From: Cyanobacteria bacterium P01_D01_bin.156
GTDB taxonomy: Bacteria > Cyanobacteriota > Cyanobacteriia > Phormidesmidales > Phormidesmidaceae
Direction of reading: 5' to 3'
Assembly (NCBI GenBank): GCA_039024555.1
Contig: JBCCQQ010000001.1
Span: forward strand, 64,001-128,000
DNA length: 64,000 bases
Of the stretch, positions 37,007 through 58,400 are shown piece by piece. How positions within the stretch are numbered: the stretch's first letter is position 1; every line of letters starts with the position of its first letter. The position numbers and the translations under genes are program-made. The notes below the pieces were generated by a model. That model did no database searches. It saw only the letters and a program-made list of their open reading frames with translations, and was not told where the DNA came from.

Positions 37007-37020
37007 CATCTATCTAACAA

Positions 37021-37644: not shown

Positions 37645-40437
37645 ATGACAAAGACTAAAAGTTCTAAGGGACTCAGCTGGCAGCTTTGCAAGCCAGTCAT
37701 TGCATCCGCTCTTGCCATCGGCGGTGCATTTAACATGGTGAACCTCGTACTAGCCGAGGGCACTGACGCTGGTACACAAATTACCAACACCGCGACAGCG
37801 ACCTATCGTGACCCAGATGGGACTCCCCAAACCTCTACTTCCAACACCGTTGTTGTTGAAGTTGCAGAGATTGCTGGTATCACCGTTGTTAACACCTCTG
37901 CTGGAGAAGCAGCCACCAATAGCAACGGTAACAGTACTGTTGAGCCGGGTGAAGATGCGGCTTACGTTTTCACCGTGACTAACGTAGGTAACGATGAAAC
38001 GGATATTAGTCTGCCTGCTGTTGCCGACTTTACAGGGCCTGTCGATAGTGTTGTCAGCATTATTGCTGACCTAGATAATGATGGTAATTTTGAGCCATCA
38101 GAAGAGATTACTAGCCGTACTGATTTTGAAAACCTCGCCCCTGGTGCTTCCTTTAAGGTTCAGGTAATCGTCAAAACCTCCACCAGTGCACAGGACGATG
38201 ATATTATCACCGTGCAGTATGGTGACACCCCCGGTGATGGTCAGAACCAACCCTACGACTCCTCGGGTGGTAGTGTATTCACAGATGATAACGACAGTGA
38301 TGATGAAAATAACCTAAATGGTGCCAGTCAAACATCTGAAGAAGCTGGCCCTGAAGCTCCGGCAAACGGCGAACGTGAGGCCAGTGCAACCGGTGAAGTC
38401 ACCATTGGTAAAGAGCCTCTGCAACAGCCTCTAGTCAAATTAGAAAAGGATTTTACTAGTTACACGGCTGGAACCAGCAATGTTAATGATGATCAGCTCA
38501 CATATCAACTTAATGTTGATGTTCTAGACTCAACCAATGATGTTCCCACGGGTAGTGATGCAGAGCCTGCCGACCTACAGCCCATAACTATTAATATTGA
38601 TAGTGGTACGGCTAGGCACGTTTTAATCGCAGATGCCATCCCTGAGAAAACATCTTTGGTGAGTGCATCTGTAACAGGTGATGCAGCCACTGACAGCTGG
38701 GTAGCTGTTTATTCAACGGATGACCCAACCACAGTCAGCGCACTTGAAGCACAGTGGAGCACCACTGACCCAGGTACAGGTGTGAGACGAGTTGGTTTTA
38801 TTGCACCTGTTAATACCGAGATTGAAAGGACAGATCCAGTACTCACTGGATTCTCGATTACGATTGTTGCCGATGGTTATAACAATACAGATGCACCGGT
38901 AACGATTGCTAATATTGCCCAGGTCTTTGGTTCAGGAGCTGATGCGGATGATCCACTAACACCGGAGGATGAAACCCTTAAGTTCCCCGTAATGGATGAG
39001 TCTGGAGATCAAACACCCAGTAACTACGATCCTGCAACGAATACTTACAGTAACTTTGACCCCAACACAACTGATACCTCAGGAGTTGATGAGCCTCCCA
39101 GTGGCTTTACCCCCGGTGATGGCTACATTGATGACCCCACTGACCTGATCACCACTGGCGTCAGCGACAGGATCACCAGCAATGATCCTACTGACCCTGA
39201 AAGACTAGATGGTGGAACCAATGACACTGGCGACGACAACTCTGGTGACGATACGGATGGGAATGGTGAAGCCGTTGTTGTTGAGCTAGTTCCTCCCACA
39301 GAATCTGACTTACTAAACGGACCTGATGGCGCTCCTGATGCAGTTGGTCCCACTGGCCTCAATGATGACTTTACCAACAAGTCTGCGCCCTTCTCTGATG
39401 GCGACCCACCGGTTGTTGAATTTACTAACACCGTGGATAACTCCAGTACCGAAGGTGGTTGGGTCCGTCTAGAGCCTATTACACCTACAGATGCCAACGA
39501 TTTACCTGACGGTACAAAGGCTACCATCATCGCACCTAGTGGTACTCGCGTTGAATATACCTATACGGGTGGTACCTGGGCTAAAACTAACTCAAGCGAT
39601 CCTGACATCATCGTTCAAGTTCAGGCAGATGATGGTACTCCTGGTGGTGACGATGAATTTGACTATGGTGTTGAGGTTGATTTACCCAACGATCCGGCAT
39701 CTGACCCCACTGACCCAACAGTAGAACCAAACAAGATTCATGAACTAGATAGCTTCCCCGTACCCATCCAGGCAACCTTTGCTGGTGCAACTGCTGTCCA
39801 AACTGAAGATACGAATAACGGTGGTAATGGTATCGACAATACCGATATCTCCAATGTTTTGGATAGTTCAACAGTTCAGAACACAACTATCGATCGTGTC
39901 TACACTGGGTTCTTAAAACTGGTTAAGACCGCTCAAGTTGTTCGTGGTGATGGTCCAGAAGTTTCTGGTAACCCTGCACCAGGTAACCACATTCTTTATC
40001 GTGTTACCTACACCAACATCTCTGAAAGTGAAATTGCACCGATGCAGGGCAATGTGCTGCTAACAGCATCTGACCTAGTGATCATTGAGGATGGTACTGA
40101 GCGGGGTTGTTCTCTAGCAGCGTCTGATTCCAATAACTGGGCCTTTGACACCGATGGTAACAGTGAGCTGGATACTCGCCATGTGGCTGGTGCAGTAGAT
40201 ATGACTCACCTAGACAATGGTTCTACAGGTACTGTCTTGTTCTACAGTGGTGGTCCAGATTGTGATGGCACTGGAACAACTGGCAACCCAGACTTTAACC
40301 CAGATACAGCTGTTCAATCGTCTGAGCTCTCGGGCACGTCTTATAACACTGACACCACTAAGTACGCCTTTGACATCGAAGGTGACATTGAGCCCCTAGA
40401 GTCTGGCTACGTTGAATTCGAGCGTCGGATTAATTAA
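37645..40437 (+). CDS. Secreted acidic DUF11/Ig-repeat protein; candidate major fibre subunit
   Basis: Signal peptide (..VLA|EG), N-terminal GTQITNTATATY, internal LEK..IADAIP..IANIAQ domain, C-terminal LVK..YRVTYTN..IIED..GYVEFERRIN*. Confidence 0.8.
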   Translation: MTKTKSSKGLSWQLCKPVIASALAIGGAFNMVNLVLAEGTDAGTQITNTATATYRDPDGTPQTSTSNTVVVEVAEIAGITVVNTSAGEAATNSNGNSTVEPGEDAAYVFTVTNVGNDETDISLPAVADFTGPVDSVVSIIADLDNDGNFEPSEEITSRTDFENLAPGASFKVQVIVKTSTSAQDDDIITVQYGDTPGDGQNQPYDSSGGSVFTDDNDSDDENNLNGASQTSEEAGPEAPANGEREASATGEVTIGKEPLQQPLVKLEKDFTSYTAGTSNVNDDQLTYQLNVDVLDSTNDVPTGSDAEPADLQPITINIDSGTARHVLIADAIPEKTSLVSASVTGDAATDSWVAVYSTDDPTTVSALEAQWSTTDPGTGVRRVGFIAPVNTEIERTDPVLTGFSITIVADGYNNTDAPVTIANIAQVFGSGADADDPLTPEDETLKFPVMDESGDQTPSNYDPATNTYSNFDPNTTDTSGVDEPPSGFTPGDGYIDDPTDLITTGVSDRITSNDPTDPERLDGGTNDTGDDNSGDDTDGNGEAVVVELVPPTESDLLNGPDGAPDAVGPTGLNDDFTNKSAPFSDGDPPVVEFTNTVDNSSTEGGWVRLEPITPTDANDLPDGTKATIIAPSGTRVEYTYTGGTWAKTNSSDPDIIVQVQADDGTPGGDDEFDYGVEVDLPNDPASDPTDPTVEPNKIHELDSFPVPIQATFAGATAVQTEDTNNGGNGIDNTDISNVLDSSTVQNTTIDRVYTGFLKLVKTAQVVRGDGPEVSGNPAPGNHILYRVTYTNISESEIAPMQGNVLLTASDLVIIEDGTERGCSLAASDSNNWAFDTDGNSELDTRHVAGAVDMTHLDNGSTGTVLFYSGGPDCDGTGTTGNPDFNPDTAVQSSELSGTSYNTDTTKYAFDIEGDIEPLESGYVEFERRIN

Positions 40438-40447
40438 GGCGAATGCA

Positions 40448-41141: not shown

Positions 41142-41150
41142 ATCGACTAC

Positions 41151-41173: not shown

Positions 41174-41489
41174 TATCCTTCTCTTCAGAACCAGTATTTT
41201 TTCACCTTAAATACTCTCATATCAATGCTCTAACCTCTTTTAAGAGAAAGCCATTTTCTAGATCATTGATAACATCTGCGCCCTAGATATCAGGTGTGCT
41301 TGATTTTTGGCGACCTAAACCGACACTCTCTGAAGATCTCTGAACTGTATATACAACAATTCAGAAATGCTTCCGGCAATAAATCAAAGTGAGTGAGATC
41401 AGGTTTACGCCAACACTGAGCAGCTAGTTCGCGATTAGATAACCGCTGCTATCGCTAGTTTTTTTGATTATTCAGGTTTGAGGCTAAAT

Positions 41490-43025
41490 ATGAAGCTATC
41501 CCAGCCACCTAAACCAAAGCCAGCCACTTGGCGCAGATGGGCATATCGCACGGTGAACGTCTTATTGGCAAGCAGCTTATGTCAAGCACCTTTTGCTGCG
41601 ATCGCAAATGCCGAAGAGATTTACAATCGGGCTGATTATAACTATCGAGATGCCGAACGTAACATTGTTCTCGGCGGTACATCTGCAGAAGTTGTTATTG
41701 ATCCAGGAGAGCTGATTGACCCATTGGGTCAAATTCTCGGGTGTAATGGCTCCCTGCTACCTAATTATGAGGGGTTTTCCGTTGCCCTATATGAGCCTGA
41801 TGCCAGTGGCTTAGAGCTAGGCAACATCGTTCCTCTAACTAGAACAGAATTCCCTGACATCGAGAACAACGGAATTTCCGGTGGTAAGGAGCCCAATACC
41901 GAAAATAGCAACCCCTTCTTCTTAACCAATGCGGATGCAGGACAATATAACTTCCTGTTTGATACAGCGACACCTTTAGAAAGCCCCGTTAATGCAGGGT
42001 TAACCCAAACCAGTACAAATGCCCAATATATCTTGGTGGTCAATCCACCAGCAGATTCCGTATTTCCCCAACGACGAATCAAACTTGAACTAACGGACAG
42101 TACAGGTGGCGTTAACAACTCAGTCATTCGCTACACGGCGACAGCGTTAGATGGCATTCCCATCTCTACTAGTGGCGGTTCCCAGGTAAGTGCCACTGTA
42201 GTTGAAATCTTTAATGCAGAAACCCAGGGTCTGAATCTATTCTCTCTAGCTTTAGGAATGGTCATGTGCGAACCTGACCAAATTAGCATTACAAAAACGG
42301 CTGACCGAGCATCGGCCCAACCTGGCGATACGGTTGTCTATCGCTTAGGACTTAGAAACTTAACTGACATTGAATTAGATTCAGTCACTGTTGAAGATTT
42401 ATTGCCTCAGGGATTTCAATTGATTCCAGAGTCAGTAACCGGTGTTCTCAATGAACAAACCGTTGCCCTAGAGGCAGAAGCATCGGGTTCTGAAGTTATC
42501 TTTACAACTCCCACACCGTTACCTGTAGATGAGACCCTCAGTGTTCTCTATGCGACTCGGGTAACACCAGACGCCGTTCGAGGCGATGGTGAGAATTTAG
42601 CATCAGTAAGTGCTGAGCGTAGTGACAATGGTTACTTTGTTCAAGATGGTCCAGCCATCCATCGGCTCGTCATCGATCCAGGTATCGTCAATGACTGCGG
42701 TACTTTGATTGGCCGTGTCTTTATAGATAACAACTTTGACGGAGAACAACAACCCGGTGAAGCTGGCATCCCCAATGCTGTTGTCTTTTTAGACGATGGC
42801 AATCGGATTCTTACCGATGCCGATGGACTATTTTCGGTTACCTGCATGCTCCCAGGTACCCGCAGCGGCGTACTGGACTTTACGAGTCTCCCCGGTTACG
42901 CCCTAGCCCCCAATCTTTACTTTAAAGAACGCAACAGCCAGTCCCGCATGGTGAATATTTCTCCCGGTGGCATGGTGCGCATGAACTTTGGCGTCACGCC
43001 CACGTTCCAGGAGGAAGCTCAGTAA
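41490..43025 (+). CDS. Secreted DUF11 + SdrD-B-like protein; candidate base subunit
   Basis: Signal ..IANA|EEIYNRADYNY; ITKTADRASAQPGDTVVY..EDLLP..ENLASV; GRVFIDNNFDGEQQPGEAGIPNA..TDADG..MNFG. Stop overlaps next ATG (TAATG). ATG 41490 preferred over TTG 41478. Confidence 0.85.
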   Translation: MKLSQPPKPKPATWRRWAYRTVNVLLASSLCQAPFAAIANAEEIYNRADYNYRDAERNIVLGGTSAEVVIDPGELIDPLGQILGCNGSLLPNYEGFSVALYEPDASGLELGNIVPLTRTEFPDIENNGISGGKEPNTENSNPFFLTNADAGQYNFLFDTATPLESPVNAGLTQTSTNAQYILVVNPPADSVFPQRRIKLELTDSTGGVNNSVIRYTATALDGIPISTSGGSQVSATVVEIFNAETQGLNLFSLALGMVMCEPDQISITKTADRASAQPGDTVVYRLGLRNLTDIELDSVTVEDLLPQGFQLIPESVTGVLNEQTVALEAEASGSEVIFTTPTPLPVDETLSVLYATRVTPDAVRGDGENLASVSAERSDNGYFVQDGPAIHRLVIDPGIVNDCGTLIGRVFIDNNFDGEQQPGEAGIPNAVVFLDDGNRILTDADGLFSVTCMLPGTRSGVLDFTSLPGYALAPNLYFKERNSQSRMVNISPGGMVRMNFGVTPTFQEEAQ

Positions 43026-46000
43026 TGAACCCGAATCGTCACTCGAAAATTTACTATTGGAGCATCTTGGCTGGTTCAGTTGCTCTATCAACGGTATCAC
43101 CGGATGGTTGGGCCTATGCCTCTCAGGATATGCCTGAGACCATCGACCCTAACAAAGCTCAGGATGTTTTACCGGAGGAATCAGCCTATGGTAACGCCGC
43201 TGACCTTAGCGTTAGTGCAATACCTGATACACCTCTTGATTCTTCTGTAGATGCTCAGTTTTTGTCATCTCAAACAGGTCCCGAGATTTTGGGGTTACAG
43301 GTTGCCCCTGAAGAGTCCTCTGATAATGATACGGCCACATTAGTCTTTCCTTCCCTAACATCGGGTATTCCTCAATTTTCGGACCCACAGTTAGCCCAGG
43401 CAACAACGACAGCCTTGGCTGAAGCACAGGAAAATCAAACTGATACAGCAGCAGATACAACCGTAGCAGACAACACTGACACAGCGGCATCTAGGTATAT
43501 CGATAACGAACTGCCTAAACTCTCTCCCAACGAAACGAAACTCGAACCATTACCGACTGCTGAGTCAGCCAACATAACTCAAATTGAACCTACTGTTACT
43601 CCCCAGGTTCAGCCCCTGCCTGCTGATAACCCAACGGTTACGAGTCAAGCTACTCCCCTCGAACTCGCAGTAACAGAGAGCGATAAATCTACGACGATAG
43701 AACAAGATGCAACAGATTCTGAAACAGGAACAACCACCGTTCAAGCCTCAGCTGAATCCGTAGCAATAGAGCAGAGTACAATAGCGCCTGAGGAGGAAGC
43801 GACTACCGCTGAGGCTGAACCAGAGATAGCCCAGTCTGTTGCATCTGGAGAAATTGAAATCCTCAACCCCACAGCGGGTAGCGTCGTTGATGTACCTGCA
43901 ATTACCGTTATTGTTCGCTTTCCAGCCACTGCTGACATTCAGTTGCAGATAAATGGTGATTCTGTCGATAACGACCTGATTGGCCGTACTGAATCGAACC
44001 CTACCACTAACCTGGTCACCCAAACTTGGTATGGGGTCCCCTTACAAGAAGGCAGCAACAGCTTAACCGTACTGGATAAGAGTGATGGTAGCCTGGTGCA
44101 ATCCACCACAGTAGAGGTCAGAGGTGCGCCTATCGAGATGACCCTGAGATCGCGAGAATCAAGGGTACCGGCTGATGGGCGTTCAATTGCGACCTTACAG
44201 GGACAATTATTAGACAGCAATGGCAATGTCTCAAACTGGGATACAATCGTCACCCTCAATGCCAGCGATGGTGAGTTTGTTGGTGTTGATTTTGCTCCAG
44301 ATCAGCCTGGGTTTCAGGTAGAAGCCCAGAACGGACGATTTAAGGCAGAACTACAGTCATCTCTAGAGTCTCATATCGTTCAGCTACAGGCAACCACAAA
44401 CGGTTTAGAAGCGTTTAACCAGGTACAGTTTGTAACACCTAAGCGCCCTAGCATTGCCACTGGTATTGTTGACCTTAGATTCGGTGCCAGAGGAACCAAC
44501 TTTTACAGTAGTCTACGAGATTTCTTACCCGAAGATGAGGACAATGATTACGCTCTAGATCTAGATGCCTCATTCTTTACCATGGGGAACGTGGGTGAGT
44601 GGCTCTTAACCAGTGCATTTAATAGCGATCGCCCCTTAAATGAAGATTGTCGAGGTGAAACCTCCCTATTCCGGCAGGGAGCAGGCAGCTGCAACAACCT
44701 ATATCCCGTATACGGTGATGACTCTTCAATCGATGTCACAACTCCATCCACCGACAGACTATATGTTCGACTAGAGCGCACATCTCCTGTAGAAGGTGCA
44801 ACGGTAGACTATGCCATGTGGGGAGACTTCAATACTGAAGAGTTTGCCAATTCATCTCAGTTGTTTACATCCACATCCCGCCAGTTACATGGATTTAAGC
44901 TCAACTATAATCTTGGCAACTTAGCCATTACGGGTCTTTATGGTGACAATATTGAGGGCTTCCAACGCGATACGATTGCTCCCGATGGTACGAGCGGCCT
45001 ATACTTTTTGTCGCGTCGGTTGGTGACCTCTGGCAGTGAACAGGTCTATCTCGAAACAGAAGAGCTGGATAGACCCGGTACTGTGCTCGAAAGAGAGCGC
45101 CTATTTCGTAATACTGATTACGATATTGATTATGATCGCGGCACATTGTTATTTGAAGATCCAGTCACTCAAACTGCGATCGGCGACTTTGGTGAAGTTT
45201 TGCTTCGCCGTATTGTTGTCACCTATCAGTTTGAGGGAGAAAATACAGATACCAATATCATTGCTGGGCGTCTACAGTATAACTTTAACCGCACCCTCAG
45301 CCAAGAATCTTGGCTAGGCACATCTTACCTAACAGAAGATCAGGGCAGTCGTAACTTTACTCTGTTTGGGGCAGATGCTCAATTTGCGTTGGGTAACAAC
45401 AACCGCTTAGTTGCAGAAATTGCCCACTCTGAAAGCGATTTTGATTTGTCTGGTCCCATCAGCGGCTCAGCCTATCGGGTTGAACTAGATGGGGTTGTGA
45501 GTGACTGGTTGAGTGGTAGAGCCTATTGGCGTTCCACCGATGCTGGCTTTACCAATGCGGCAACTACGAGTTTTGTTCCTGGTCAGACTCGGTATGGTGC
45601 CCAGGCCAATGTCAAAGTCAGTCGGAACACCACACTGCGTGCACAGTTTGATCATGAAGATAATGATGGTGTAGCCCCTCGTCCGATTACGGATCTTGAA
45701 GACTTACTGACACCGGGACAAAATCCGGTGCCAGGTTCCCGGGTCGATAACTCATTGACCACCTATTCCCTAGGACTAGCCCAGCGCCTGGGAGATACCA
45801 ATCTAGAATTTGACTGGGTTCATCGCGATCGCACTGACCGCACTAACCCAAGCCAGTTCAATACCAGTTCAGATCAGCTTAGAACACGAGTAACCACCCG
45901 AGTCTCTGACAAGCTCACTCTGCGGGCTCAAAATGAGCTAAATCTTTCATCGGAGAGCGATCCCATTTATCCCAGTCGCACCTATCTAGGACTGGATTGG

Positions 46001-47218
46001 GAAGCACTACCGGGCATTAAAGTGGGACTGGGCCAGGTATTCTACGGCGACAATGGTTTTAGCGATCGCGACTCTTACACTATTTTTGATGTATCTGGCG
46101 AACGCTCCCTAGGGGAAGACACGACCATTCGCGGTCGTTTTAGCAGCGTTGACGGTCAACATCTCGGCGGTGCCATCGGTGTTGAACATGGCTTTAATCT
46201 AGGTCCTGGTCTCCGACTTGATTTAGGCTATGAACGAGTCTTTAACAGTCTTGGCGGCACCGCTTCCGGTAGTCAGTTTAGCCAACCCTTTGCCGTAGGT
46301 ACTGGCGGCTCCTCCGTTGGCACCGTTGACAGCAACACCTATACCCTCGGATTGTCCTACACAGACAATCCCGATTTACAAGCCAGCGCACGGATTGAGC
46401 ATCGCGATTCTTCCCAGAGCAGCAACACGGTACTGAATGCCTCTGCAGTAGGCCGTCTCTCGCCAGCCGTCAGTGCGTTATTTAACTATCAGCTCAATCG
46501 GGCAGCCAACCAGAGCATTAGCAACATTGGTACCACCAGCAACCTCAAACTAGGTCTCGCCTACCGCGATCCTAACGATGATCGACTCAATGCGTTGCTA
46601 CGGTATGAACATCGCATCAATCCAAACACACTGCCAACAAATGCTCTATTTGGCCGCAGTCTTGATACCTCTGAGCATGTATTCTCAGGCGAAGCTCTAT
46701 ATGCCCCCAATTGGCGATGGGAGCTCTACGGAAAATATGCCTTCCGCACCACTCAGACTCGCATTAACCTACCAGCCGATGAGGGCGGTGACTTTGTCTC
46801 CAATAACAACTTACATCTCGCCCAGATGAGGGCCACCTACCGGTTTGACTACAGCTGGGATGTAAGTGCTGAAGCTCGTTGGTTTGGTGGTCTGGGTGAC
46901 TACAACGAGTTGGGGTATGCCCTGGAAGTCGGTTACTATGCTACCCCTGATTTTCGCATCTACGGTGGCTACAGCGGGGGTGGAGCCTACGATGACGACT
47001 TTGGAATAAATCGCTCGGCTAGTGGGTTTTATATTGGTGTCTCCGCCAAAATCAATAGCCTGTTTGATGGCTTTGGTTTACAGGATGTTGCTCCACGACA
47101 ACAGCGGGAGTCTTCTCTAGAGGCTGAGCCAGACGCTCTCTTTTTTGAAGATCCCAGCACCATTCCCTTTCCTACCAATTCCCCTGTAGAGGATGTTTCA
47201 ACTGAGGAGCAAGGGTGA
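43025..47218 (+). CDS. Large outer-membrane beta-barrel protein with N-terminal Ig-like domains; candidate usher-like pore
   Basis: Signal peptide, acidic low-complexity linker, invasin-like VPADGRS, YPVYGDDS, DYDIDYDRGTL, long run of alternating amphipathic strands ending GFYIGVSAK. Confidence 0.8.
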   Translation: MNPNRHSKIYYWSILAGSVALSTVSPDGWAYASQDMPETIDPNKAQDVLPEESAYGNAADLSVSAIPDTPLDSSVDAQFLSSQTGPEILGLQVAPEESSDNDTATLVFPSLTSGIPQFSDPQLAQATTTALAEAQENQTDTAADTTVADNTDTAASRYIDNELPKLSPNETKLEPLPTAESANITQIEPTVTPQVQPLPADNPTVTSQATPLELAVTESDKSTTIEQDATDSETGTTTVQASAESVAIEQSTIAPEEEATTAEAEPEIAQSVASGEIEILNPTAGSVVDVPAITVIVRFPATADIQLQINGDSVDNDLIGRTESNPTTNLVTQTWYGVPLQEGSNSLTVLDKSDGSLVQSTTVEVRGAPIEMTLRSRESRVPADGRSIATLQGQLLDSNGNVSNWDTIVTLNASDGEFVGVDFAPDQPGFQVEAQNGRFKAELQSSLESHIVQLQATTNGLEAFNQVQFVTPKRPSIATGIVDLRFGARGTNFYSSLRDFLPEDEDNDYALDLDASFFTMGNVGEWLLTSAFNSDRPLNEDCRGETSLFRQGAGSCNNLYPVYGDDSSIDVTTPSTDRLYVRLERTSPVEGATVDYAMWGDFNTEEFANSSQLFTSTSRQLHGFKLNYNLGNLAITGLYGDNIEGFQRDTIAPDGTSGLYFLSRRLVTSGSEQVYLETEELDRPGTVLERERLFRNTDYDIDYDRGTLLFEDPVTQTAIGDFGEVLLRRIVVTYQFEGENTDTNIIAGRLQYNFNRTLSQESWLGTSYLTEDQGSRNFTLFGADAQFALGNNNRLVAEIAHSESDFDLSGPISGSAYRVELDGVVSDWLSGRAYWRSTDAGFTNAATTSFVPGQTRYGAQANVKVSRNTTLRAQFDHEDNDGVAPRPITDLEDLLTPGQNPVPGSRVDNSLTTYSLGLAQRLGDTNLEFDWVHRDRTDRTNPSQFNTSSDQLRTRVTTRVSDKLTLRAQNELNLSSESDPIYPSRTYLGLDWEALPGIKVGLGQVFYGDNGFSDRDSYTIFDVSGERSLGEDTTIRGRFSSVDGQHLGGAIGVEHGFNLGPGLRLDLGYERVFNSLGGTASGSQFSQPFAVGTGGSSVGTVDSNTYTLGLSYTDNPDLQASARIEHRDSSQSSNTVLNASAVGRLSPAVSALFNYQLNRAANQSISNIGTTSNLKLGLAYRDPNDDRLNALLRYEHRINPNTLPTNALFGRSLDTSEHVFSGEALYAPNWRWELYGKYAFRTTQTRINLPADEGGDFVSNNNLHLAQMRATYRFDYSWDVSAEARWFGGLGDYNELGYALEVGYYATPDFRIYGGYSGGGAYDDDFGINRSASGFYIGVSAKINSLFDGFGLQDVAPRQQRESSLEAEPDALFFEDPSTIPFPTNSPVEDVSTEEQG

Positions 47219-49392: not shown

Positions 49393-49523
49393 GAAATATT
49401 CTGTTGTCTTATCAGCCGCCATAGATCTTCTGAAAGATTGAAATACTCTGTTTCAATTTCGCAACGCTATTTATTGCAGGAGTCAAGTTTTCTCTTGCAT
49501 CTAGACAAGGAATTTGTTTGATT

Positions 49524-52500
49524 ATGAAATGGTCTCGTCAACAGCTTAACCACGATAATGCTGGCATCAAGCTGCTTACTAACTCTTTACGGTTAGGGCT
49601 GGGTGCCATGACCTCCGCTGCAAGCCTGTGGTTAGCGTATGGAGCAGTCTCTAGCCAAAGTGCAAATGCGGGACCACTGACCTCCATAACAACAACAACC
49701 CCACCGGCAACAAACAGCTTTATCTACACAGCGGGAGGACAGGAGCATCGATTTGGTCAAGGAAATGATGTGATCCTTCAGAGCGTTACAGATGCCTCAG
49801 GCACCTACTCTCCCGATACAGTAGCTGACCAAGTCATTGTCCGTCGAGTTGACAATGCCAATGTCTCTGGAGAAAAGTGTGGTATATTTGCCGCTCAAAG
49901 TGGTTCTAATGTGCGACATTACGGCCCAACCTATCCACACTTTTCTCCCCAAGATGCCAACGGAAACTGCTCCTATGAAGCAATTCTCAGCGGTTTTAAT
50001 ATTGGTCTTGGTGCCCTCGATTTATTTAGCAACACTCCCTCAGGTGGAGATAATGAATATAACAATGTCGAACGCATTGACTTTATCTTTAATGATGGCA
50101 TCCATGCACCATTTAACTCATCTCTGTTGAACCAGGCAGGCCACATTGTTACCGAGAAAAGTGCCAATAATGCCTACATGATTGCAGCGGTTACGGCTGT
50201 TGATGGGGCTGGCAACCCGACTGCCTATGCCACTCCAGTATGGGTGGCAGGCTATGAGGATACTTACACTCCCGCAGGCTTAACCGTAGTGCGGATGGCT
50301 CAAGTGGGAAGTGCCACTCAGAATGGGTTTTTAACCAGTGACTCCAACTCAGCACCCCATGGCGCACCTAGTAGGAAGGGAGGCCAAGCTGAAAAATTCG
50401 GTGGTGCCTTTGTCACACTCCAAGACATGGGCCTAGCAGCAGGGCAGAAGTATTATGGCTTTTCGTTTATTCCGGCAGACGTAGAGAGTGCTATCGGTAC
50501 TAGCTCCGCTGATTTATTAGATTATACGAGCTTTCCGACTACAACATCGCGGCATGCATCTGGGTATGAGCCGGGTGACGGCGATATGTTTGGGGGGACA
50601 GCGGGTTATTTTATCGCTTATTCCAGCAATAATATTAGCGGTAGTCTGTATGAAGACGACAGCCCTCAGAACAATAGCTTTGACAGTGGTAGCGAGTCGA
50701 AACTCGGTAACAATATTGAGGTAATTCTCTATGGAGATGTCAATGGTAACAACACCTACGATGCTGGGTCTGATACCATTATTGATACCACTGACACCAC
50801 TAATGGAGACTATAGTTTTACCAATATTCCAGAAGGAACCTATGGCATCTATGTCAATACAGCAGATGGTGATATTGCTAGTAATCTTAGTCTAGGTACA
50901 CCTAACAATCTCAGCGTCACTCTCAACGGAAGCGACATTACCAACCAAAACTTTGGTTTTGATTCTACAGTCGTGGGAGGTATCTGCGCTAACCCAATAT
51001 CAGGTCCATTCAACAGTTCCAACTATGCTCTAAATACTCCGCTTCAAGGCTCTCTACCGCTCTCGTTTTATGGCGGCGGCATGTTGTTCGACGCCAACCT
51101 ATCAGGAATCGCTACTTGGAAGGATGGGGTCCAGATACGGAATGATTCTACCGTAGGCCAACAAATCTTCCTGCAGCCCGAGAACGCAAGTGACTACCTC
51201 AACACAAACAACGAGGCTATTTACACCTTTACCTTTCCCAACCCAGTTACAGACCTGACGCTACAGGGGGCTGGGCTCAACAATGAAGATGGCACCACCA
51301 TTTTGCCTAGCTATCAGGGGGTACCCATTCCTACTACCTCCGCTAACTTCAGTGGCTTGAATCCTGTCCCTGGCATGAGGCTGGAAGATGCTGACGGTAA
51401 CGGTGAAAGTGATACTGTCGTTGGCAGCTCGACAGCAGGAGGGGTATCAGTAACTACCAATATTTACACCTTTACGATTCCAGGACCGGTAGACACCCTT
51501 ACTATCGTCTCAGGTAAAGACGATGTAAATAGGAATAGTACTGTCACTATTGGTTTACACTCCTTCGGATTCTGTGGAGATGGCGTTTTAGACTACGGCG
51601 ATGCGCCGGACAGCTATGGGACCAATGCTACGGATGATGGTGGAGAGGGTATTGGTCCTAGCCATGCCATTGTTAGTGGTATTCATTTAGGTACTGCACC
51701 CGATGCGGAGAGTGATGCAGAGACGCCCTTAGATGGTAGCGGTGATGGTGCTGAGGATAATGGGATTACGCTGCCTACGCTAACGGAAGGTGACACCAGC
51801 TATTCCATACCAGCAGCTAATATTAATGCAACCGGCAGTGGTACCCTTCACGCTTGGATTGATTTTAATAAGAGTGGTACGTTTGAGCCAGGTGAACACA
51901 AAAGTGTTGAGGTGATAAGTGGCACTCCAAGTGGTGCGCTGATCTGGAGTGGGATTACAGCGGGAGCGGCTGGTGATACCTATGCTCGATTTAGATTTAC
52001 ATCGGATACTAGCATTACCCTGAATACTCCTGGGGGCGCTGCCGGTGATGGTGAGGTAGAAGATTATCAGGTTGCGATTTCCACATCTGTTTTACCAACC
52101 TTTTCTTGCTCCACAAACGCTAACTTATTCAACACTGGCTACAGTGGCAGCGGTAAAGCCGCTACAGGAACACGCGATCTCAACTGGGATGTCGGGTATA
52201 TCTCCGCTGCTACTGGTTCTCCAGACATTGTTGCAGCACCGAGTAGCATTACAAATTGGGTAGATGCATATGTCACGGGAAGAGTCACAACTGCCTGGGA
52301 CCCTAGTGTGTTTGGACAAGCAGAATGGATTTCCCATGTTAATGATACTGACCATACCGGGCAGAAAGTAGATGTCTTCTATCGGTATCAATTCAATATT
52401 GATCCAGCCGTTACCTTAGACTCTTTTGCCGTACACATGGATTGGATGGCAGATAACTCCATCTGGGAGATTTACGTCAATGGCACACCCCAAAGTGGAA

Positions 52501-55373
52501 ATTTAGGTGACATACCTCAAGATCCAACCAGCCCTTACTTTCACCTAGGCTTCAAACAGGCCAATCGAGCACAAACTGTTTTAACTGAAAACTGGCAACC
52601 TGGGACTAATGAGTTAATTGTCCGGGTTCGCAGTGAACAACCCCTACAAGGATTTGTAGGAGAAATATCAGCCGATGTTCTTTGTATACCTGATTTTGGG
52701 GATGCCCCCGATACTTATGGCACCGATGCTACCGACGATAGCGGCGAAGGGATTGGCCCTAACCACATTATTGTCGGCGGCATCCATTTGGGTACCATCG
52801 CTCCTGATGCTGAAGCCAATGCTGAGACTCCACTAGATGGCACAGGCGATGGCGCTGAGGATGATGGTGTCACTATGCCTGCCTCTATTCAGCCAGGAGA
52901 GACAATTTCTCTGCCCATCACTGTTACTGGCAGCGGTAATTTGACCGCGTGGATTGACTGGAATGGCGATGGCACGTTTGCAGCGGGAGAACAGATTGCC
53001 ACCGACGCAGTCGATGGGGGTACGGGCGATACGGACGGCAACATTGATGGCACCATCACCCTGAGCGTGACTGCACCAGCCGGAGCCACTGTTATCGGTA
53101 ATACGTATGCCCGATTTCGATACAGCTCCGACACAGGGCTGGGGGCAACAGGCGCTGCCAGTGATGGTGAAGTAGAGGATTATCCACTCACTATATCTTT
53201 GCAAGACATTCCTAAAATTCCAGACTTACCGCCAATAACACCGCCAACTCCAGAGATTCCTGACTCTATTTGCGCTCTACCGGGTTCAGATGGCACAGCT
53301 GCTTTGAGTGGTGTACTGAATACTTACTATCCTGGTGTTTCATCAGCGAGTGCTGGGGCAACAACACTTTCTTTAGGACCTATCCATACTGGAGGTAATA
53401 CAACTACCATTGAAAAAGGTGACAAACTGCTGATTATTCAAATGCAGGATGCCGACATTACTTCAACCAATGCTGACACTTACGGTAGTGGCACATCTGG
53501 CACTGCAGCCAGTGGCTCCACAGCACTGAATACCGCTGGATACTATCAGTATGTTGTTGCCGACAGTGCAGTGGGTGCTGCTGGCGGTACATTACAGCTG
53601 GCGGACCCCCTTGCTTTTACTTTTACCCATAGCGATTTCTCAGGTACCTCTGGTCAGCGACGCTTCCAGGTCATTCGCATGCCACAGTACTATGATGCAT
53701 CCATTACAGGTATAGTCACCGCAGCTCCTTGGAATGGTGCTTCCGGTGGTGTGGTGGGTTTGGATGTGGCCAAAACCTTAACGTTTGCTGGCGGTACTAT
53801 CGACGTCAGTGGTCAAGGGTTTCGTGGCGGCGGTGGTCTCAATGTGCTTGGCGATGGAGTGGCCCTACCTTACCCAGGGAACACCGACTACGTTAGTCTT
53901 GCAACCAATCCTTACCATGGCTCTAAGGGAGAAGGTATTGCCGGAACCCCCCGGTACATTCGTAATGATGTAACCACCACAGTCACAGATACCGGTATTG
54001 AAGGCTACCCCAACGGTAGCTTTGGTCGCGGTGCACCCGGTAACGCAGGCGGTGGTAGCACGGACCCGAAATCGTCGGCCAACGCTGCCAATACTGGCGG
54101 CGGCGGCGGTGCCAACGGTGGCTACGGTGGCCATGGGGGCGATTCATGGATTGATACCCATGGCCGCCAACCCATGGGTGGCTTTGGTGGACAGGCATTC
54201 CCTAGCAGTTCTAGCCGGGTAATTATGGGCGGCGGTGGCGGCGCAGGCACTGCTAACAATTCGGCTGGAGGCGTTACTCCATCTGGTGGGGGCGGTGGGG
54301 GCATTGTCATCCTCCGCGCTGGCGAAATTGCAGGTTCTGGAACTATTGAAGCGAACGGCATCCAAGGGGTGGAGCCCACAGGAACTGACGGCGGCGGCGG
54401 TGGCGGTGCTGGCGGTAGTGTAGTGATGCTTTCTGTCGATCCGTCTAGTGCAACAGTGACCATCAATGCTCGAGGGGGCAGAGGTCTTGATTCTGGCTTC
54501 CGTGAACACGGCCCCGGCGGCGGCGGTGGCGGCGGCTATGTCGCCTATGATGGCATTACGCCTACGGTAGATATTGCTGGGGGTGAACCCGGTAATGACC
54601 AAGCCTCTGCTAGTACCAGCGCCGGGGCTGACCCGGCAGCGGACCCCTATGGCGCTACGGCGGGTGGTAGTGGGCTGGCACAGTCCACTACCATCCCTGA
54701 CCAGGGGGTAGAACCTGGTGGAGAATGTCTAGAGCCACAAGTTCTCTTAGTTAAGCGGATCACCGCTATCAATGGTGCTGTCAGTACCAATAATGGTGAC
54801 GATTTGGCGGCTTACATGGATGAAACATCCAATCCATATGATGACAACACTCTGACTACACCAGTTCCAACTCCCCCAGATACAGATCAGTGGCCTAATC
54901 CGAATATGAGTCTAGTCGGGGGTATCCATGGGGGAAATGTTGCATTTGATGATGAGATTGAATACACCATTTATTTTCTCTCTTCTGGAAATACGACTGC
55001 CGAGAATGTTCTCTTCTGTGACTACGTACCTGAGTTTACGAGCTTTCTCCCCAATGCCTACGCTGGCAACAGCGCCAATCCAGACGGTATCGGCATTGAT
55101 CTCAGCGTAGAACTCTTTCGCAACGGGACTACTGATTATCACACCGGAGCTAACGATGGCGACAGCGCCACCTACTTTGCCCCAGGAGTGGACCCGGCAG
55201 CCACTTTCCCCGGCATCGACTGTGAAGGCGATGAAGATAACGACCCGCTGACACCCACCACAAATACCAATAACAATGGCGCTCTAGTAGTGAATCTAGG
55301 AGATTTACCCGACGCTACATCCGACAGTACTGGAGCCTACGGCTATGTACGATTTAGAACACGGGTCAAGTAA
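49524..55373 (+). CDS. Giant adhesin 1 (SdrD-B, 2x GEVED, Gly-rich region, terminal DUF11-like domain)
   Basis: Signal ..SANA|G; two DYGDAP/DFGDAP..AWID..YARFR..GEVEDY modules; poly-Gly region; LLVKRITAING..YGYVRFRTRVK*. Confidence 0.88.
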   Translation: MKWSRQQLNHDNAGIKLLTNSLRLGLGAMTSAASLWLAYGAVSSQSANAGPLTSITTTTPPATNSFIYTAGGQEHRFGQGNDVILQSVTDASGTYSPDTVADQVIVRRVDNANVSGEKCGIFAAQSGSNVRHYGPTYPHFSPQDANGNCSYEAILSGFNIGLGALDLFSNTPSGGDNEYNNVERIDFIFNDGIHAPFNSSLLNQAGHIVTEKSANNAYMIAAVTAVDGAGNPTAYATPVWVAGYEDTYTPAGLTVVRMAQVGSATQNGFLTSDSNSAPHGAPSRKGGQAEKFGGAFVTLQDMGLAAGQKYYGFSFIPADVESAIGTSSADLLDYTSFPTTTSRHASGYEPGDGDMFGGTAGYFIAYSSNNISGSLYEDDSPQNNSFDSGSESKLGNNIEVILYGDVNGNNTYDAGSDTIIDTTDTTNGDYSFTNIPEGTYGIYVNTADGDIASNLSLGTPNNLSVTLNGSDITNQNFGFDSTVVGGICANPISGPFNSSNYALNTPLQGSLPLSFYGGGMLFDANLSGIATWKDGVQIRNDSTVGQQIFLQPENASDYLNTNNEAIYTFTFPNPVTDLTLQGAGLNNEDGTTILPSYQGVPIPTTSANFSGLNPVPGMRLEDADGNGESDTVVGSSTAGGVSVTTNIYTFTIPGPVDTLTIVSGKDDVNRNSTVTIGLHSFGFCGDGVLDYGDAPDSYGTNATDDGGEGIGPSHAIVSGIHLGTAPDAESDAETPLDGSGDGAEDNGITLPTLTEGDTSYSIPAANINATGSGTLHAWIDFNKSGTFEPGEHKSVEVISGTPSGALIWSGITAGAAGDTYARFRFTSDTSITLNTPGGAAGDGEVEDYQVAISTSVLPTFSCSTNANLFNTGYSGSGKAATGTRDLNWDVGYISAATGSPDIVAAPSSITNWVDAYVTGRVTTAWDPSVFGQAEWISHVNDTDHTGQKVDVFYRYQFNIDPAVTLDSFAVHMDWMADNSIWEIYVNGTPQSGNLGDIPQDPTSPYFHLGFKQANRAQTVLTENWQPGTNELIVRVRSEQPLQGFVGEISADVLCIPDFGDAPDTYGTDATDDSGEGIGPNHIIVGGIHLGTIAPDAEANAETPLDGTGDGAEDDGVTMPASIQPGETISLPITVTGSGNLTAWIDWNGDGTFAAGEQIATDAVDGGTGDTDGNIDGTITLSVTAPAGATVIGNTYARFRYSSDTGLGATGAASDGEVEDYPLTISLQDIPKIPDLPPITPPTPEIPDSICALPGSDGTAALSGVLNTYYPGVSSASAGATTLSLGPIHTGGNTTTIEKGDKLLIIQMQDADITSTNADTYGSGTSGTAASGSTALNTAGYYQYVVADSAVGAAGGTLQLADPLAFTFTHSDFSGTSGQRRFQVIRMPQYYDASITGIVTAAPWNGASGGVVGLDVAKTLTFAGGTIDVSGQGFRGGGGLNVLGDGVALPYPGNTDYVSLATNPYHGSKGEGIAGTPRYIRNDVTTTVTDTGIEGYPNGSFGRGAPGNAGGGSTDPKSSANAANTGGGGGANGGYGGHGGDSWIDTHGRQPMGGFGGQAFPSSSSRVIMGGGGGAGTANNSAGGVTPSGGGGGGIVILRAGEIAGSGTIEANGIQGVEPTGTDGGGGGGAGGSVVMLSVDPSSATVTINARGGRGLDSGFREHGPGGGGGGGYVAYDGITPTVDIAGGEPGNDQASASTSAGADPAADPYGATAGGSGLAQSTTIPDQGVEPGGECLEPQVLLVKRITAINGAVSTNNGDDLAAYMDETSNPYDDNTLTTPVPTPPDTDQWPNPNMSLVGGIHGGNVAFDDEIEYTIYFLSSGNTTAENVLFCDYVPEFTSFLPNAYAGNSANPDGIGIDLSVELFRNGTTDYHTGANDGDSATYFAPGVDPAATFPGIDCEGDEDNDPLTPTTNTNNNGALVVNLGDLPDATSDSTGAYGYVRFRTRVK

Positions 55374-55474: not shown

Positions 55475-58400
55475 TTGATGTGCATGTTAAGCATGTTCTG
55501 CCATGCCATAGATTCACAATTGCTATCGCACATGCATCATTATGTTCACAATACTACGCTAAGCCAGAGGCCTAATACTTGCTTGTATTTTCTGGGTCAG
55601 CATAGAACCGGTATCTATCGCTGTTTTCTAAATTTAGGGCTCATCAGCCTCATGGGAATTATAGCTGTGCCCAAGGCAACAGCAGCAGTAACCACGTTTG
55701 ACATTGATGTGCGCAAGGATGGTACAGCGCCTTTTGCAGGGACTGATCCGACCTATCCTGGTACTAGCAATGCAGGAAATGATGCTAATGATAGTAATGG
55801 TATTATCCGTACCTATGACATAGCTACCTATCGGGTCCGATATGCTACAGATACTCAGCCCAATGGCAGTACAACCATTACGGCTACTATTGCTGATAAT
55901 TATCATCTTTGGGAGGAAAACCAGGCTGGGTGTCTTGGCAATGTGTCGATTAGTAGCGATCGCAAAACTCTTACCTGTACAGAATCCCTACCCACATCAA
56001 CCACCGGTTTCTTTGATTTTACAGCTGTTGTTCTAGGAACAGCCCCCCACGGTGCAGATCTGATAGTTAACGCTACTTTAAGCTCCAGTGCCACTAATCT
56101 AGCTGCAGGCCCCACCAACATCAAAGTCTCTGCAACACCACAAATGGATCTTGCCAAAGATGATTCTGGCGCTCCACGTCAGGTGGGAATAATGGCCGGA
56201 CCTAGTGGTGAAGAGGGATTAGTATACGCATGGCCCCTTTCAATCGTCGCACCAAAAGGCAGCGAAGTCCTTGGAGATGCTGATTCCACAACCCCTGGCA
56301 ATCAAATTATCATTACCGATGTAGTCAGCGGAATCTCCCCCAATGCCCGTCTATATAACTGGGGAGGCCGCTCGGGCTGTGCGCCTAATACCAAAGACAG
56401 TAATATCGCTGGCGATTGGATTAGAGATATTCCGCTTGGCTCCCTAACAATTGCTGGAGCAGGTCAAGAAGCTAATGCTGTGGCAGACTCTGGAACCTGG
56501 AACTGTAGCCAAAGCAGCGCTGGCACGGATATTACCATCACCATTACGGATGCTGATCTCACAGCAAGCCATCGTCCAACCCTTGATGCCTCTGGAGATA
56601 CCCTAAACGTTACCGACACCCATCTAGTAGCCGGGGTCGTAGAAATCTGGATACCCATGAGTGACTTCCCATCAGGGCAGAACCAATTGACAGTCACCAA
56701 TTACTACGACTTTCTAGACACTCCCAGCATTACTAACCAGACGAACACAGAGCCAGACCGAGGAAATAATAGCGTTGTTCCTATCAGCAATAGTGATGCT
56801 GTTAATAATGACCGCACCTTTACCCTACAGCGTCCACTCTCAGGACGCTCCCAGGATAAATACTATCGAACACCTTACAGCGGTGGCAATTTTAGTAACA
56901 ACAGAGTTCTTTCTCCCATGACGGATATTGAATCCGGCGATGGTGTTGTCATTCCAGGTCAGGTTTTTGGTAGTTATTTCACCATTAACAATAATGGCGT
57001 TGGGGAGCTGACCAATGTGTTTTTGTGCGACAAGTTTGACAATCGCACCCAAATTTTGGCCCCTAATCCGACTAGTGGCGAGTATGTCGAGTTGCGAACC
57101 AATGGCGATCGTCTAAAAGCATCAGATGTCACCATTGAATATGGTGTTGGCGGAGATAATGCAACAGATAATTACTACGGTAGTGAAACAGCCGCCATTG
57201 ATGATGTTAGTCGCTTTGATGCTCAGCGCAATGCCACCTGTGGGGATAGTGATGCCACCTGGTATAGCGAAACTGATTTGGCAAACGATCCGAGTTTAAT
57301 TCCGAATGTGACTCGGGTAAGAATTCGCCCCACTGCTACGAATGGGGTTCTGCCAGAAGGCTTCCGCATTGATGCGGTGCTGCATCTGCAGGCGCTTAAC
57401 GTTGATCCGGTTACTGGAGCACAGATTCCTGACCCAACGATTCTGGCTAATTTTGTGACGTCCCGCACCGATGAAGTTAACAGCGGCAACTGGGCAGTGG
57501 GGTCCTACAACCCTGTGGACCATAGTGGAAATGATGATGGCGATCGTCTACAGCTAACCCGTGCGATCGCTCGCATTGATAAAAGTACCGATGATCCTAG
57601 TAATGCGACCGAGGCAGATGACTCTCTCAGCACCGTTAGAGCCACTGAAAACATTACCTTTGCCCTTGAGTCTACCTTGACCGCCTTAACCAGCGAAGTC
57701 TCTCAGGCACAAATTATAGTCACTGACACCTTACCTGTAGAACTTAGCTATGTCACGGGCTCAGCCAATATTACTCCAGATAGTATTATTGCAAATGGCG
57801 ATGGCACCACTACTCTAAATTGGGACTTAGGCAATTACCCGATCAGTACACCAATTCCTACCATTACTTTTCAGGCCAAAGCTGGTTTTGATGTGGCAGG
57901 CGGGACAGATGCCTTAAACCAAGCATCTATTGCAGCCTTAGATACTAACGGATTAGATCTTGACACCTCCCCTTTAGCATCTCGCACGGATGTTCGGTCG
58001 ATCACTATCATTAACAATGCTGCTTTTACCATCTTCAAAGAAGCCGTTACTCCTGAGATCGATCCGGGAGATGACATTATCTATAATCTTTACCTCGCTA
58101 ACCTAAGTGAGGACACAAATGTAGCAGCAGGGTCCAGATTTATCGATATTCTCCCCTATGAAGGAGATGGAGCCATTCGAGACTCTTTTGATGGGTTAGG
58201 AACTCCTCCCACAGATTACACAGTTGCCCCAGTCTTTCAAGATATTCAGGATATTAATAATGTTGGTTTTACCTTTGAGTACACCAACGATACTCCTAGC
58301 GATATCAGTGATAATCCAGCCACTCAAAATAGCAGCACGATTTGGTGTACCCCATCTGAAATCACCAATAGCACACCAGGCTGTCCAACCACAGACTATT

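Follow-up and report, generated by a model that had tools for sequence, protein, structure and literature searches.

A split CnaA-like domain in a cyanobacterial surface protein suggests a possible self-locking, head-to-tail fibre

Results

The N-terminal hairpin of P0001 is the likely missing end of its last domain

The gene for P0001, a secreted protein of 930 amino acids (aa), lies at 37645..40437 on the plus strand of a 64,000-nucleotide (nt) stretch of DNA from Cyanobacteria bacterium P01_D01_bin.156 (assembly GCA_039024555.1, contig JBCCQQ010000001.1, positions 64,001 to 128,000), hereafter referred to as the window, whose numbering is used throughout unless another locus is named. Our analysis provides strong in silico support for the hairpin at the N-terminus of P0001 being the missing end of the last domain of the same protein, a conclusion that is drawn from three independent lines of evidence: co-folding of the two parts, natural fusions in which they adjoin, and the predicted fold of the fused form. 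The best reading of this arrangement, to which we give about an even chance, is that P0001 is the putative shaft subunit of a head-to-tail, probably covalently locked surface fibre. A first-pass annotation, made from the letters of the window and their translations, had proposed that a donated N-terminal strand and a Lys-Asn isopeptide bond polymerise the protein, and the results below both support and amend that proposal.

The signal peptide of P0001 (aa 1-37; 37645..37755, plus strand) was recognized from its hydrophobic stretch and from an (V/A)LA(E/D)GT junction that is kept in 41 homologues. Cleavage probably follows VLA37, a position read by the -3/-1 rule without a predictor, and the mature N-terminus would then be E38/G39; the first-pass annotation had placed it at GTQITN, which is the right neighbourhood but a few residues too late. 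The mature chain opens with the putative donor beta-hairpin (aa 38-73; 37756..37863, plus strand), which comprises a strand F carrying N48 (codon 37786-37788), a turn, and a strand G carrying S66 and N67. At the other end of the chain, the acceptor or end domain (aa 757-930; 39913..40437, plus strand) contains strands A-E only and runs into the stop codon directly after its strand-E motif. Its key residues are K761 (39925-39927), E815 (40087-40089), D816 (40090-40092), and N930 (40432-40434), all encoded on the plus strand. The motifs from which the first-pass annotation had argued are all present, with LVK ending at K761, IIED at 813-816, GYVEFERRIN930 at the C-terminus, and ITNTATATY at 46-54 including N48, and its claim that the terminal domain stops before an Asn strand is borne out by a chain that ends after strand E.

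When the end domain (aa 742-930) was co-folded with the N-terminal segment (aa 39-78), the pair reached an interaction prediction score from aligned errors (ipSAE) of 0.76 (0.75, 0.89, and 0.76 in the individual runs) versus 0.03 for the best control. The mark that this pair passed is attained by 116 of 157 solved complexes and by 2 of 215 mismatched pairs, a calibration that is roughly valid here, the alignment being user-made. The runs share at least 90% of their contacts, and the predicted local distance difference test score (pLDDT) of the partners is at least 78. In the co-fold, hairpin residues 50-55 pair with residues 808-814, the strand ending at E815, while hairpin residues 64-69 pair with residues 759-761 of the Lys strand; by the model, these pairings occupy the canonical F-with-C and G-with-A positions of an immunoglobulin (Ig) sandwich. 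E815, N48, and N930 all fall within the interface, and residues 929-930 touch the first residues of the hairpin. The first-pass annotation was thus right to look for the missing piece at the N-terminus of P0001, as the co-fold, ten natural fusions, and the fold of the fusion agree, but the piece is a two-stranded hairpin, F plus G, and not a single strand. In the AlphaFold2 (AF2) model of the monomer, the hairpin is built of strands at 45-48, 51-55, 61-65, and 69-72 with a pLDDT of 55-63, versus 79-95 for domain 1 behind it. Because of this low pLDDT, and because about half of the natural fusions continue without domain 1, the in silico evidence supports a hairpin that is not an integral strand of domain 1.

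The natural fusions were found with a profile of the end domain, which matched 388 representatives at 50% identity; the best 150 of these 388 were classed. An end domain at or near the C-terminus was accompanied by an N-terminal hairpin in 95 of the 150, while in 10 the end domain was internal, and in every one of these 10 a hairpin followed within 8 residues (nine detected by hidden Markov model (HMM), one by eye). No hairpin was detected in the remaining 45, and 38 hairpin-less representatives whose starts were read begin inside P0001-like domains, have no signal peptide, and look like truncated gene calls. About half of the ten fused forms continue, in the printed sequences read by eye, with something other than domain 1, so that the hairpin goes with the end domain. 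Two giant RTX-repeat adhesins from other cyanobacteria, neither of whose genomes contains the 515-aa protein described below, each carry end domain and hairpin in one chain. In the 2451-aa protein of locus L042 (9411-16763 of that locus, plus strand), a homologue of aa 556-930 of P0001 passes at a junction reading ..FQRQVN followed by FTTAGTLITNKATVTYEE.. directly into a homologue of aa 40-321; the L042 adhesin amounts to a stretch of P0001 in circularly permuted order. In the 2711-aa protein of locus L041 (8265-16397 of that locus, minus strand), the homologue of aa 556-930 is likewise followed directly by the hairpin, with unrelated domains beyond it.

An AF2 model of the L042 junction consists of one domain, with a pLDDT of 77.6 and a predicted template modelling score (pTM) of 0.77. 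Structural comparison of this model using VIA-align returned the pilin BcpA (3kpt_A; Z 12.8, root-mean-square deviation (rmsd) 2.1, 128 aligned residues, model residues 19-213) and the CLIPPER domain 9IFR (Z 10.7, rmsd 2.6, 120 of 123 residues aligned, model residues 15-212), whereas Mfa5, known from the type V pili of Bacteroidota (6to1, Z 10.8), is a generic Ig-domain match only. The aligned ranges include the hairpin, and the completed domain is modelled as a CnaA-type, Ig-like sandwich. These matches to CnaA-like and CLIPPER domains do not sustain the CnaB-type assignment of the first-pass annotation. By this model, a CnaA-like domain is interrupted at its E-F loop, with N930 and G39 flanking the split. 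In P0001, the sandwich is not a single continuous segment of chain, strands A-E being contributed by aa 757-930 and strands F-G by aa 38-73; the two are contiguous only in the fusions. Profile comparison was of little help in reaching these assignments, as hhalign in local mode aligned the P0001 end domain with a complete CLIPPER domain at a probability of 6 and found no match between the hairpin and the CLIPPER domain, so that the strand assignment rests on structure prediction and the fusions and not on profile matches.

The Lys-acid-Asn set is conserved in split proteins

The pattern goes well beyond chance: among 41 diverse homologues of P0001, residues N48, K761, S66, N67, and N930 are invariant, and the hairpin segment (aa 39-78) is the best-conserved stretch of the protein, with a mean column conservation of 0.82 versus 0.42-0.61 for other regions. 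In a wider set of 202 non-identical split proteins having both ends, K761 is present in all 202 and N48 in 201, and position 815 is acidic without exception (E in 195, D in 7). At position 816, D occurs in 170 of the 202 (about 84%), the rest having N, S, E, or R. By this conservation the acid of the set is E815 and not D816, the residue that had been named as catalytic in the first-pass annotation. In the ten fused forms, whose two pieces are in any case joined by the peptide backbone, the Lys is replaced by Thr in three, one of which has also lost the acid and the Asn. This comparison covers related sequences and is not a statistical test, yet it supports in silico a stricter selection on the Lys-acid-Asn set in split than in fused forms.

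N930 was also considered as the reactive Asn and was rejected. It closes strand E, and in other subfamilies (P0126, P0141, P0162, P0203, P0221, and about 20 more representatives) E, Y, S, T, or L stands in place of the terminal Asn. The tails that follow the substituted residue in those subfamilies are 4-24 residues long, rich in Pro, Thr, and Asn, and often end in Pro.

The placement of the three residues resembles that of a known isopeptide domain. In 9IFR, as described in the CLIPPER survey, the triad is K715/D748/N806 and the domain ends at 828, so that about 22 residues separate the Asn, which is on the penultimate strand, from the domain end (PMC12617251). The hairpin of P0001 runs on for 25 residues after N48, close to this spacing, and P0001 has the Lys on the first strand, the acid in mid-domain, and the Asn on the penultimate strand, all of them conserved, as CLIPPER domains do. 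In the register of the model, K761 on strand A, S66/N67 on G, N48/T49 on F, and E815/D816 on C line up in a single row. The best indirect evidence for the predicted K761-N48 bond is the selection that appears to act on the three residues in split proteins.

P0001 consists of four Ig-like domains

At E<=1e-3 we identified 427 homologues of P0001, every named one of which is cyanobacterial; the closest named homologue is from Leptothoe kymatousa (71% identity). The gene was defined from its open reading frame (ORF) and translation, these homologues, and a match to the Pfam family DUF7925 (PF25546; aa 264-461, 150.7 bits against a gathering cut-off of 26.5), the sole Pfam family detected in the protein. 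The full-length AF2 model has a mean pLDDT of 75.6 and a pTM of 0.48, and together with VIA-align it resolves four Ig-like domains that abut at approximately 73/74, 255/259, 552/553, and 756/757. A sequence search of the Protein Data Bank with the whole of P0001 gave one weak match only (7avh, E 0.0028), and a search of the same database with the junction profile gave none.

Domain 1 (aa 74-255; 37864..38409, plus strand) is a complete Ig-like domain that aligns with TTHA1873 (Z 8.9) over model residues 74-255. Domain 2 (aa 259-552; 38419..39300, plus strand) contains the DUF7925 match and is CnaA-like, aligning with 9IFR (Z 9.0) and BcpA (Z 9.5) from model residue 259 or 263 to 549 or 551; within it, aa 466-541 form a long loop that is predicted with low confidence. 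DUF7925 was founded on the Nostoc homologue Q8YS00, for which the CLIPPER survey predicts a triad of K264/D326/N415 (PMC12617251). The corresponding K268 of P0001 is kept in 40 of 41 homologues, and D330 and N423 in all 41, so that domain 2 is predicted to be an ordinary stalk domain with an internal isopeptide crosslink of its own. Domain 3 (aa 553-756; 39301..39912, plus strand) resembles the N-terminal domain of PorA (6kjk; Z 10.2, 132 of 134 residues, model residues 555-756) as well as enterococcal WxL-interacting proteins (9i1y, Z 8.4), both of which are components of other surface-display systems.

P0001 is encoded in a conserved operon with acceptor-only and donor-only proteins

The gene order 930-, 193-, 515-, and 1397-aa protein is kept in all 11 loci that were fetched from other cyanobacteria, with one to three adhesins after it. 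Among 301 genomes sampled from the phylum, those with a split-form homologue of the 930-aa protein and those with a full-length homologue of the 515-aa protein are the identical 31. When all ORFs of the genome were searched with HMMs of the P0001 hairpin and end domain, P0001 alone was matched; the hairpin and end domains of its neighbours are thus separate subfamilies.

The gene downstream of P0001 encodes P0003 (40560..41141, plus strand), a secreted 193-aa protein that was assigned from half-DUF11 matches and from hhalign, which aligned it with the complete CLIPPER domain of the 515-aa protein at a probability of 95.9 and with an adhesin end domain at 88.7. It ends after strand E, and in none of 12 orthologues are both the Lys and the acid present. 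P0003 is therefore an acceptor-only protein by its layout and a candidate chaperone or cap, which may hold or cover hairpins reversibly.

The next protein, P0004 (515 aa; 41478..43025, plus strand; assigned by Pfam and hhalign), has the opposite make-up. A hairpin at its N-terminus (aa 44-85; nt 41607-41732) is followed by a middle domain, a CLIPPER domain that is complete, and an SdrD_B-like domain. The hairpin is homologous to that of P0001 (hhalign probability 95.5, E 1.5e-8), and its Asn is kept in 12 of 12 orthologues, while the remaining domains of the protein are all complete. The CLIPPER domain, which contains K273/D306/N373, matches DUF11 at aa 269-384 (E 1.2e-10; 42.2 bits against a gathering score of 24.6) and is one of three complete Lys/Asp/Asn domains that the first-pass annotation had read in the cluster. 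All three are real: the motifs ITKT/EDLLP/ENLASV belong to this protein, IDKS/TDTLP/LNQASI to the 1541-aa ORF, and VTKE/RDILP/LNTVVI to the 1155-aa ORF on the minus strand. As a donor-only protein, P0004 is a candidate for the root of the fibre.

P0005 (1397 aa; 43025..47218, plus strand) is a putative outer-membrane barrel. Pfam gave only sub-threshold matches to porin-like families; in the atlas, the neighbours of residues 470-1345 are clusters of approximately 850-aa proteins annotated as 'outer membrane protein' (score 0.97-0.98), and the gene is syntenic in all 11 loci. Base 43025 belongs both to the stop codon of the 515-aa gene and to the ATG that starts the 1397-aa gene (43022-43028), and the 1397-aa gene in turn overlaps the following 725-aa gene at 47215-47218, which suggests translational coupling of these genes. 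The 725-aa protein, P0006 (47215..49392, plus strand), combines a beta-helix with an OmpA-like peptidoglycan-binding domain (Pfam OmpA, Beta_helix, and NosD) and is accessory, an OmpA-like gene being present in 2 of the 11 other loci.

Three adhesin-like proteins with acceptor-like end domains of a common type complete the set. The first (1951 aa; 49518..55373, plus strand) contains two GEVED domains (PF20009, E 7.8e-26). The second (1541 aa; 55475..60100, plus strand) and the third (1155 aa; 60235..63702, minus strand) have no Pfam match at E<=0.01, although their Lys/Asp/Asn domains are visible by eye; the third has a sub-threshold match to DUF11 that covers profile positions 9-64 of 114 only. 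Across these three and 13 adhesin end domains from other loci, the Lys (LVKRIT) and the Asp (CD..P) are found in 16 of 16, and all 16 stop at a motif of the form ..YGF(V/I)RFR.KVK, that of the 1951-aa protein reading ..YGYVRFRTRVK. These end domains probably lack strands F-G. An operon that contains both acceptor-only and donor-only proteins supports, in silico, complementation between chains as its design principle.

A second, shaft-less set of genes lies outside the window in the same genome, on the minus strand of contig C17 (4596-14340). It encodes a 302-aa protein whose N-terminal hairpin stands directly before a complete CLIPPER domain, a 1185-aa homologue of the barrel protein, a beta-helix/OmpA protein of 691 aa, and an adhesin of 990 aa whose end domain is of the LIKRIT/CDE type; homologues of the 930-aa and 193-aa proteins are absent from this set. 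Short root paralogues such as the 302-aa protein also occur in genomes that have no 930-aa protein.

A scan of 36900-43200 for promoters and terminators gave counts within those of shuffled sequences, and no terminator was found after the 930-aa gene; a search for RNA runs returned none. Upstream, at 33241-37006, the window encodes two kinases, one a Ser/Thr protein kinase of 693 aa on the minus strand and the other a histidine kinase of 529 aa with a GAF domain on the plus strand. A 638-nt gap of lower G+C separates them from the 930-aa gene, and both are possible regulators. Farther away, a low-G+C island at 6001-10000 (0.36-0.38 versus approximately 0.48) contains a 756-aa ORF (7152-9422) with a hydrophobic C-terminus and is possibly foreign DNA.

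Pairing between chains is weighed against closure of one chain and other explanations

The complementarity of hairpin and end domain, like the conservation of the residues and of the operon, is established here in silico; what such complementarity builds has to be judged from less direct observations. Those that favour pairing between molecules are the linear chain in which the junction of end domain and hairpin sits in the fusions, and the short junctions between the domains of P0001, which in the model leave little slack for the chain to fold back on itself. When the full-length monomer model was compared using VIA-align, in none of the top 50 rows (all with Z of at least 8) was the end domain aligned as one complete unit, versus a Z of 12.8 for the fusion model, and no row showed the hairpin docked in cis, although long models such as this one are poorly tested by the comparison.

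A number of results weigh against a covalent fibre of this kind. The lowest-error contacts of K761 in the co-fold are S66 and N67 and not N48, and the pass in the co-folding test may reflect likeness to intact solved CnaA-like domains rather than binding. The hairpin part of the L042 model has a pLDDT of only 45-72, as no more than 2 of the 25 rows in the alignment cover it. Covariation between hairpin and end domain, analyzed as mutual information with average product correction (MI-APC) over the 202 sequences (effective number 118), gave an interface share of 0.32 among the top 50 pairs versus a background of 0.31; one of the 25 listed co-fold contacts, 55-810, did rank third. In Pfam, the cut-out segments aa 742-930 and aa 39-78 match no family at E<=10, DUF11 (PF01345) included. 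The end domain of the adhesins aligns end to end with that of P0001 only weakly (hhalign probability 38), and a competing local alignment lays their NGAVVV stretch on the Asn strand of a complete domain. Our literature searches turned up neither fibres or ladders of this type in cyanobacteria nor an experiment on any member of the family. Finally, hairpin and end domain belong to the same protein in 28 of 29 orthologues, the 29th being cut by the end of its contig, and completion of each molecule by itself would equally predict that the fused forms are circular permutations.

These last two observations lead to the alternative of closure within one chain, in which the hairpin completes the end domain of its own molecule and a K761-N48 bond closes the four-domain chain into a ring, giving a stable monomeric surface protein and no fibre. 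Intramolecular reactions are kinetically favoured, and both halves coincide in one protein not only among the orthologues but also in 95 of the best 150 of the 388 representatives. The fused homologues, read as circular permutations, would fit termini that neighbour each other in the folded protein. Discontinuous isopeptide domains are also known in pilins, as shown by the SpaA and GBS104-like entries in Table 1 of the CLIPPER survey (PMC12617251). Closing the ring would nevertheless require four Ig-like domains with short junctions to bend back upon themselves, when the only long flexible stretch of P0001 is the loop in domain 2, and in the fused proteins the junction is part of a linear chain. 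AF2 did not dock the hairpin confidently in the monomer, modelling it at a pLDDT of 55-63, the end domain does not appear whole in any of the top 50 rows, and self-sufficient monomers would leave the acceptor-only and donor-only neighbours still in need of partners, the 193-aa protein being left with the 515-aa protein alone. We consider closure of the single chain unlikely.

Were pairing between chains to occur without polymerisation, a single 930-aa molecule could serve as an adaptor that links one adhesin to one root, giving a defined three-part stalk and no homopolymer. Its hairpin would enter the end domain of the adhesin, and its own end domain would receive the hairpin of the 515-aa protein. 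The operon does contain two types of hairpin and two types of end domain, the shaft-less set on C17 shows that an adhesin and a root can probably join directly, and close cousins of the true partner can also pass the co-folding test. The fusions speak for pairing of P0001 with its own kind, however, as the end domain and the hairpin that they unite are both of P0001 type, with a P0001-type domain 1 next in L042; like-with-like pairing is hence the native fold in these proteins, and the like-with-like co-fold of P0001 scored 0.76. A stalk with just one P0001 molecule appears distinctly unlikely to us.

The hairpin might instead complete the domain without forming a bond, as in chaperone-usher pili, with K761, N48, and E815 serving in packing or in another role. 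This would agree with the contacts of K761 to S66 and N67 in the co-fold, with the 3 of 10 fused forms that have no Lys, and with CLIPPER domains, some of which have no bond according to the survey (PMC12617251). It is harder to reconcile with a retention in the 202 split proteins of 202 for K761, 201 for N48, and 202 for the acid at 815, stricter than in fused forms, and with the position of the three residues at those of the CLIPPER triad, so that non-covalent complementation strikes us as improbable. Least probable by far is that the end domain serves only as a tag for sorting or secretion that the outer-membrane protein recognizes, with the hairpin being part of domain 1 or a separate signal: a similar end domain does close several unrelated adhesins, and C-terminal sorting domains do likewise in other secretion systems, but a tag would not account for the hairpin, the co-fold and all 10 fusions join the two parts, and neither the half or so of the fusions without domain 1 after the hairpin nor the low pLDDT of the hairpin beside a confident domain 1 fits a hairpin that belongs to domain 1.

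Discussion

We infer assembly in trans, the isopeptide bond, the order of the parts, and the roles of the 193-, 515-, and 1397-aa proteins from the results above, and the fibre of 930-aa subunits might form as follows. P0001 would be the shaft subunit of a snap-together fibre built on a split CnaA-like, CLIPPER-type isopeptide domain, to which the last domain would bring the reactive K761 on strand A and the catalytic E815 on strand C, and the N-terminal strands F-G the reactive N48. After Sec export, the hairpin of one subunit would enter the last domain of another, and F-C and G-A pairing would complete the sandwich; K761 could then attack N48 with loss of ammonia under catalysis by E815, giving a covalent joint without an enzyme. 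Repeated joining would yield a head-to-tail polymer. At the tip, one of the three adhesins encoded nearby could take up the free hairpin end in its acceptor-type end domain, and at the root, the free acceptor end could be filled by the hairpin of the 515-aa protein, whose gene appears translationally coupled to that of the 1397-aa outer-membrane protein. The 193-aa acceptor-only protein, having no Lys/acid pair, might hold hairpins reversibly as a chaperone or cap.

Taken as a whole, this would amount to a new pilus class for diderm bacteria, a proposal that we make tentatively and rate somewhat below an even chance. It would comprise a natural Tag/Catcher pair, obtained by splitting a CnaA-like domain at its E-F loop, and would do without a sortase, an usher homologue, or an ATPase. 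The 193-aa protein, a catalytically dead acceptor domain, would be a dedicated inverted chaperone that holds hairpins until exchange, a giant outer-membrane barrel would be both root and exit, and interchangeable adhesins would be clipped on by the same joint. If true, it would add an enzyme-free covalent route to the known classes of diderm pili (chaperone-usher, type IV, type V, and curli), and the split-isopeptide-domain trick of protein engineering would prove to have been invented by nature as well. The display of very large adhesins by filamentous cyanobacteria would also find an explanation; the operon is present in 31 of the 301 genomes sampled. The size of the family, with 388 representatives at 50% identity for the end domain alone, and the several types of hairpin and acceptor in a single operon make it a possible source of orthogonal, self-ligating peptide/protein pairs.

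The engineered counterpart is SpyTag/SpyCatcher, in which the CnaB2 domain of a Streptococcus pyogenes adhesin has been split into pieces that reconstitute and bond spontaneously. As proposed for P0001, a small piece carries one reactive residue and a large piece the other together with the catalytic acid. The SpyTag/SpyCatcher split, however, is man-made, of CnaB type, and based on a Lys-Asp bond and a single strand, whereas that of P0001 would be natural, of CnaA type, based on Lys-Asn, and equipped with a two-strand donor for polymerisation.

Among natural pili, the chaperone-usher systems (type 1 and P pili) consist of incomplete Ig-like subunits, each completed non-covalently by the N-terminal extension of its neighbour. 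They share with the proposed system a division into tip adhesin, shaft, and terminator, a periplasmic holder, and an outer-membrane protein in the operon. They differ in that one strand is donated and that the chaperone itself donates a strand, whereas the 193-aa protein offers an acceptor domain, and no usher (PF00577-type) or PapD-like chaperone was found in Pfam and NCBIfam scans of six operon proteins. Sortase-assembled pilins such as BcpA (3kpt), RrgB (2x9z), and SpaD (4hss) provide the best structural matches to the completed domain, and their CnaA/CnaB domains are likewise built into covalent fibres. In these Gram-positive pilins, a sortase joins the subunits at an LPXTG signal, whereas P0001 comes from a diderm; there is no LPXTG sorting signal at its C-terminus (..GYVEFERRIN), the genome not having been searched for sortases.

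The CLIPPER/DUF11 (PF01345) and DUF7925 domains share with the completed P0001 end domain the same fold and the placement of Lys, acid, and Asn, but in the survey, which concerns intramolecular bonds only, the whole domain and its bond lie in one chain and the acid is Asp, whereas P0001 is split in the E-F loop and has Glu (PMC12617251). The papers returned by our literature searches contain no description of a split CLIPPER or CnaA-like isopeptide domain that builds a diderm fibre.

A close likeness in mechanism is to BsaA, a member of the TasA family that forms biofilm fibres in Clostridium perfringens, for which 'donor-strand exchange and lock' has been described (bioRxiv 10.1101/2024.11.04.621531). 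According to that preprint, a triad of N35/E56/K74 is proposed to give rise spontaneously to an isopeptide between subunits, a proposal that is backed by mutational data, and the oligomers resist heat and sodium dodecyl sulphate without a sortase being involved (bioRxiv 10.1101/2024.11.04.621531). As predicted for P0001, an N-terminal segment enters the beta-sheet of the next subunit and brings together an Asn/Glu/Lys set. From what is described there, BsaA differs in its TasA-like fold, its single donated strand, its Gram-positive host, its SipW and type IV pilus-linked secretion, and the absence of an outer-membrane barrel; Pfam detected no TasA-type family in the scan of the P0001 operon, whose fold matches are to CnaA-like pilin domains instead. 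A second parallel comes from the thread of the archaeon Sulfolobus acidocaldarius, whose Sec-exported, sortase-free subunit Saci_0406 is described as combining donor-strand complementation with proposed intermolecular isopeptides (PMC9715654). Strand donation and a modelled N-terminal isopeptide are again what we propose for P0001, although the thread is archaeal, its subunit is unrelated, and no outer membrane is involved (PMC9715654). By analogy with BsaA and the archaeal threads, the mechanism proposed for the assembly of P0001 has precedents, which in both cases join strand donation to a proposed isopeptide bond between subunits.

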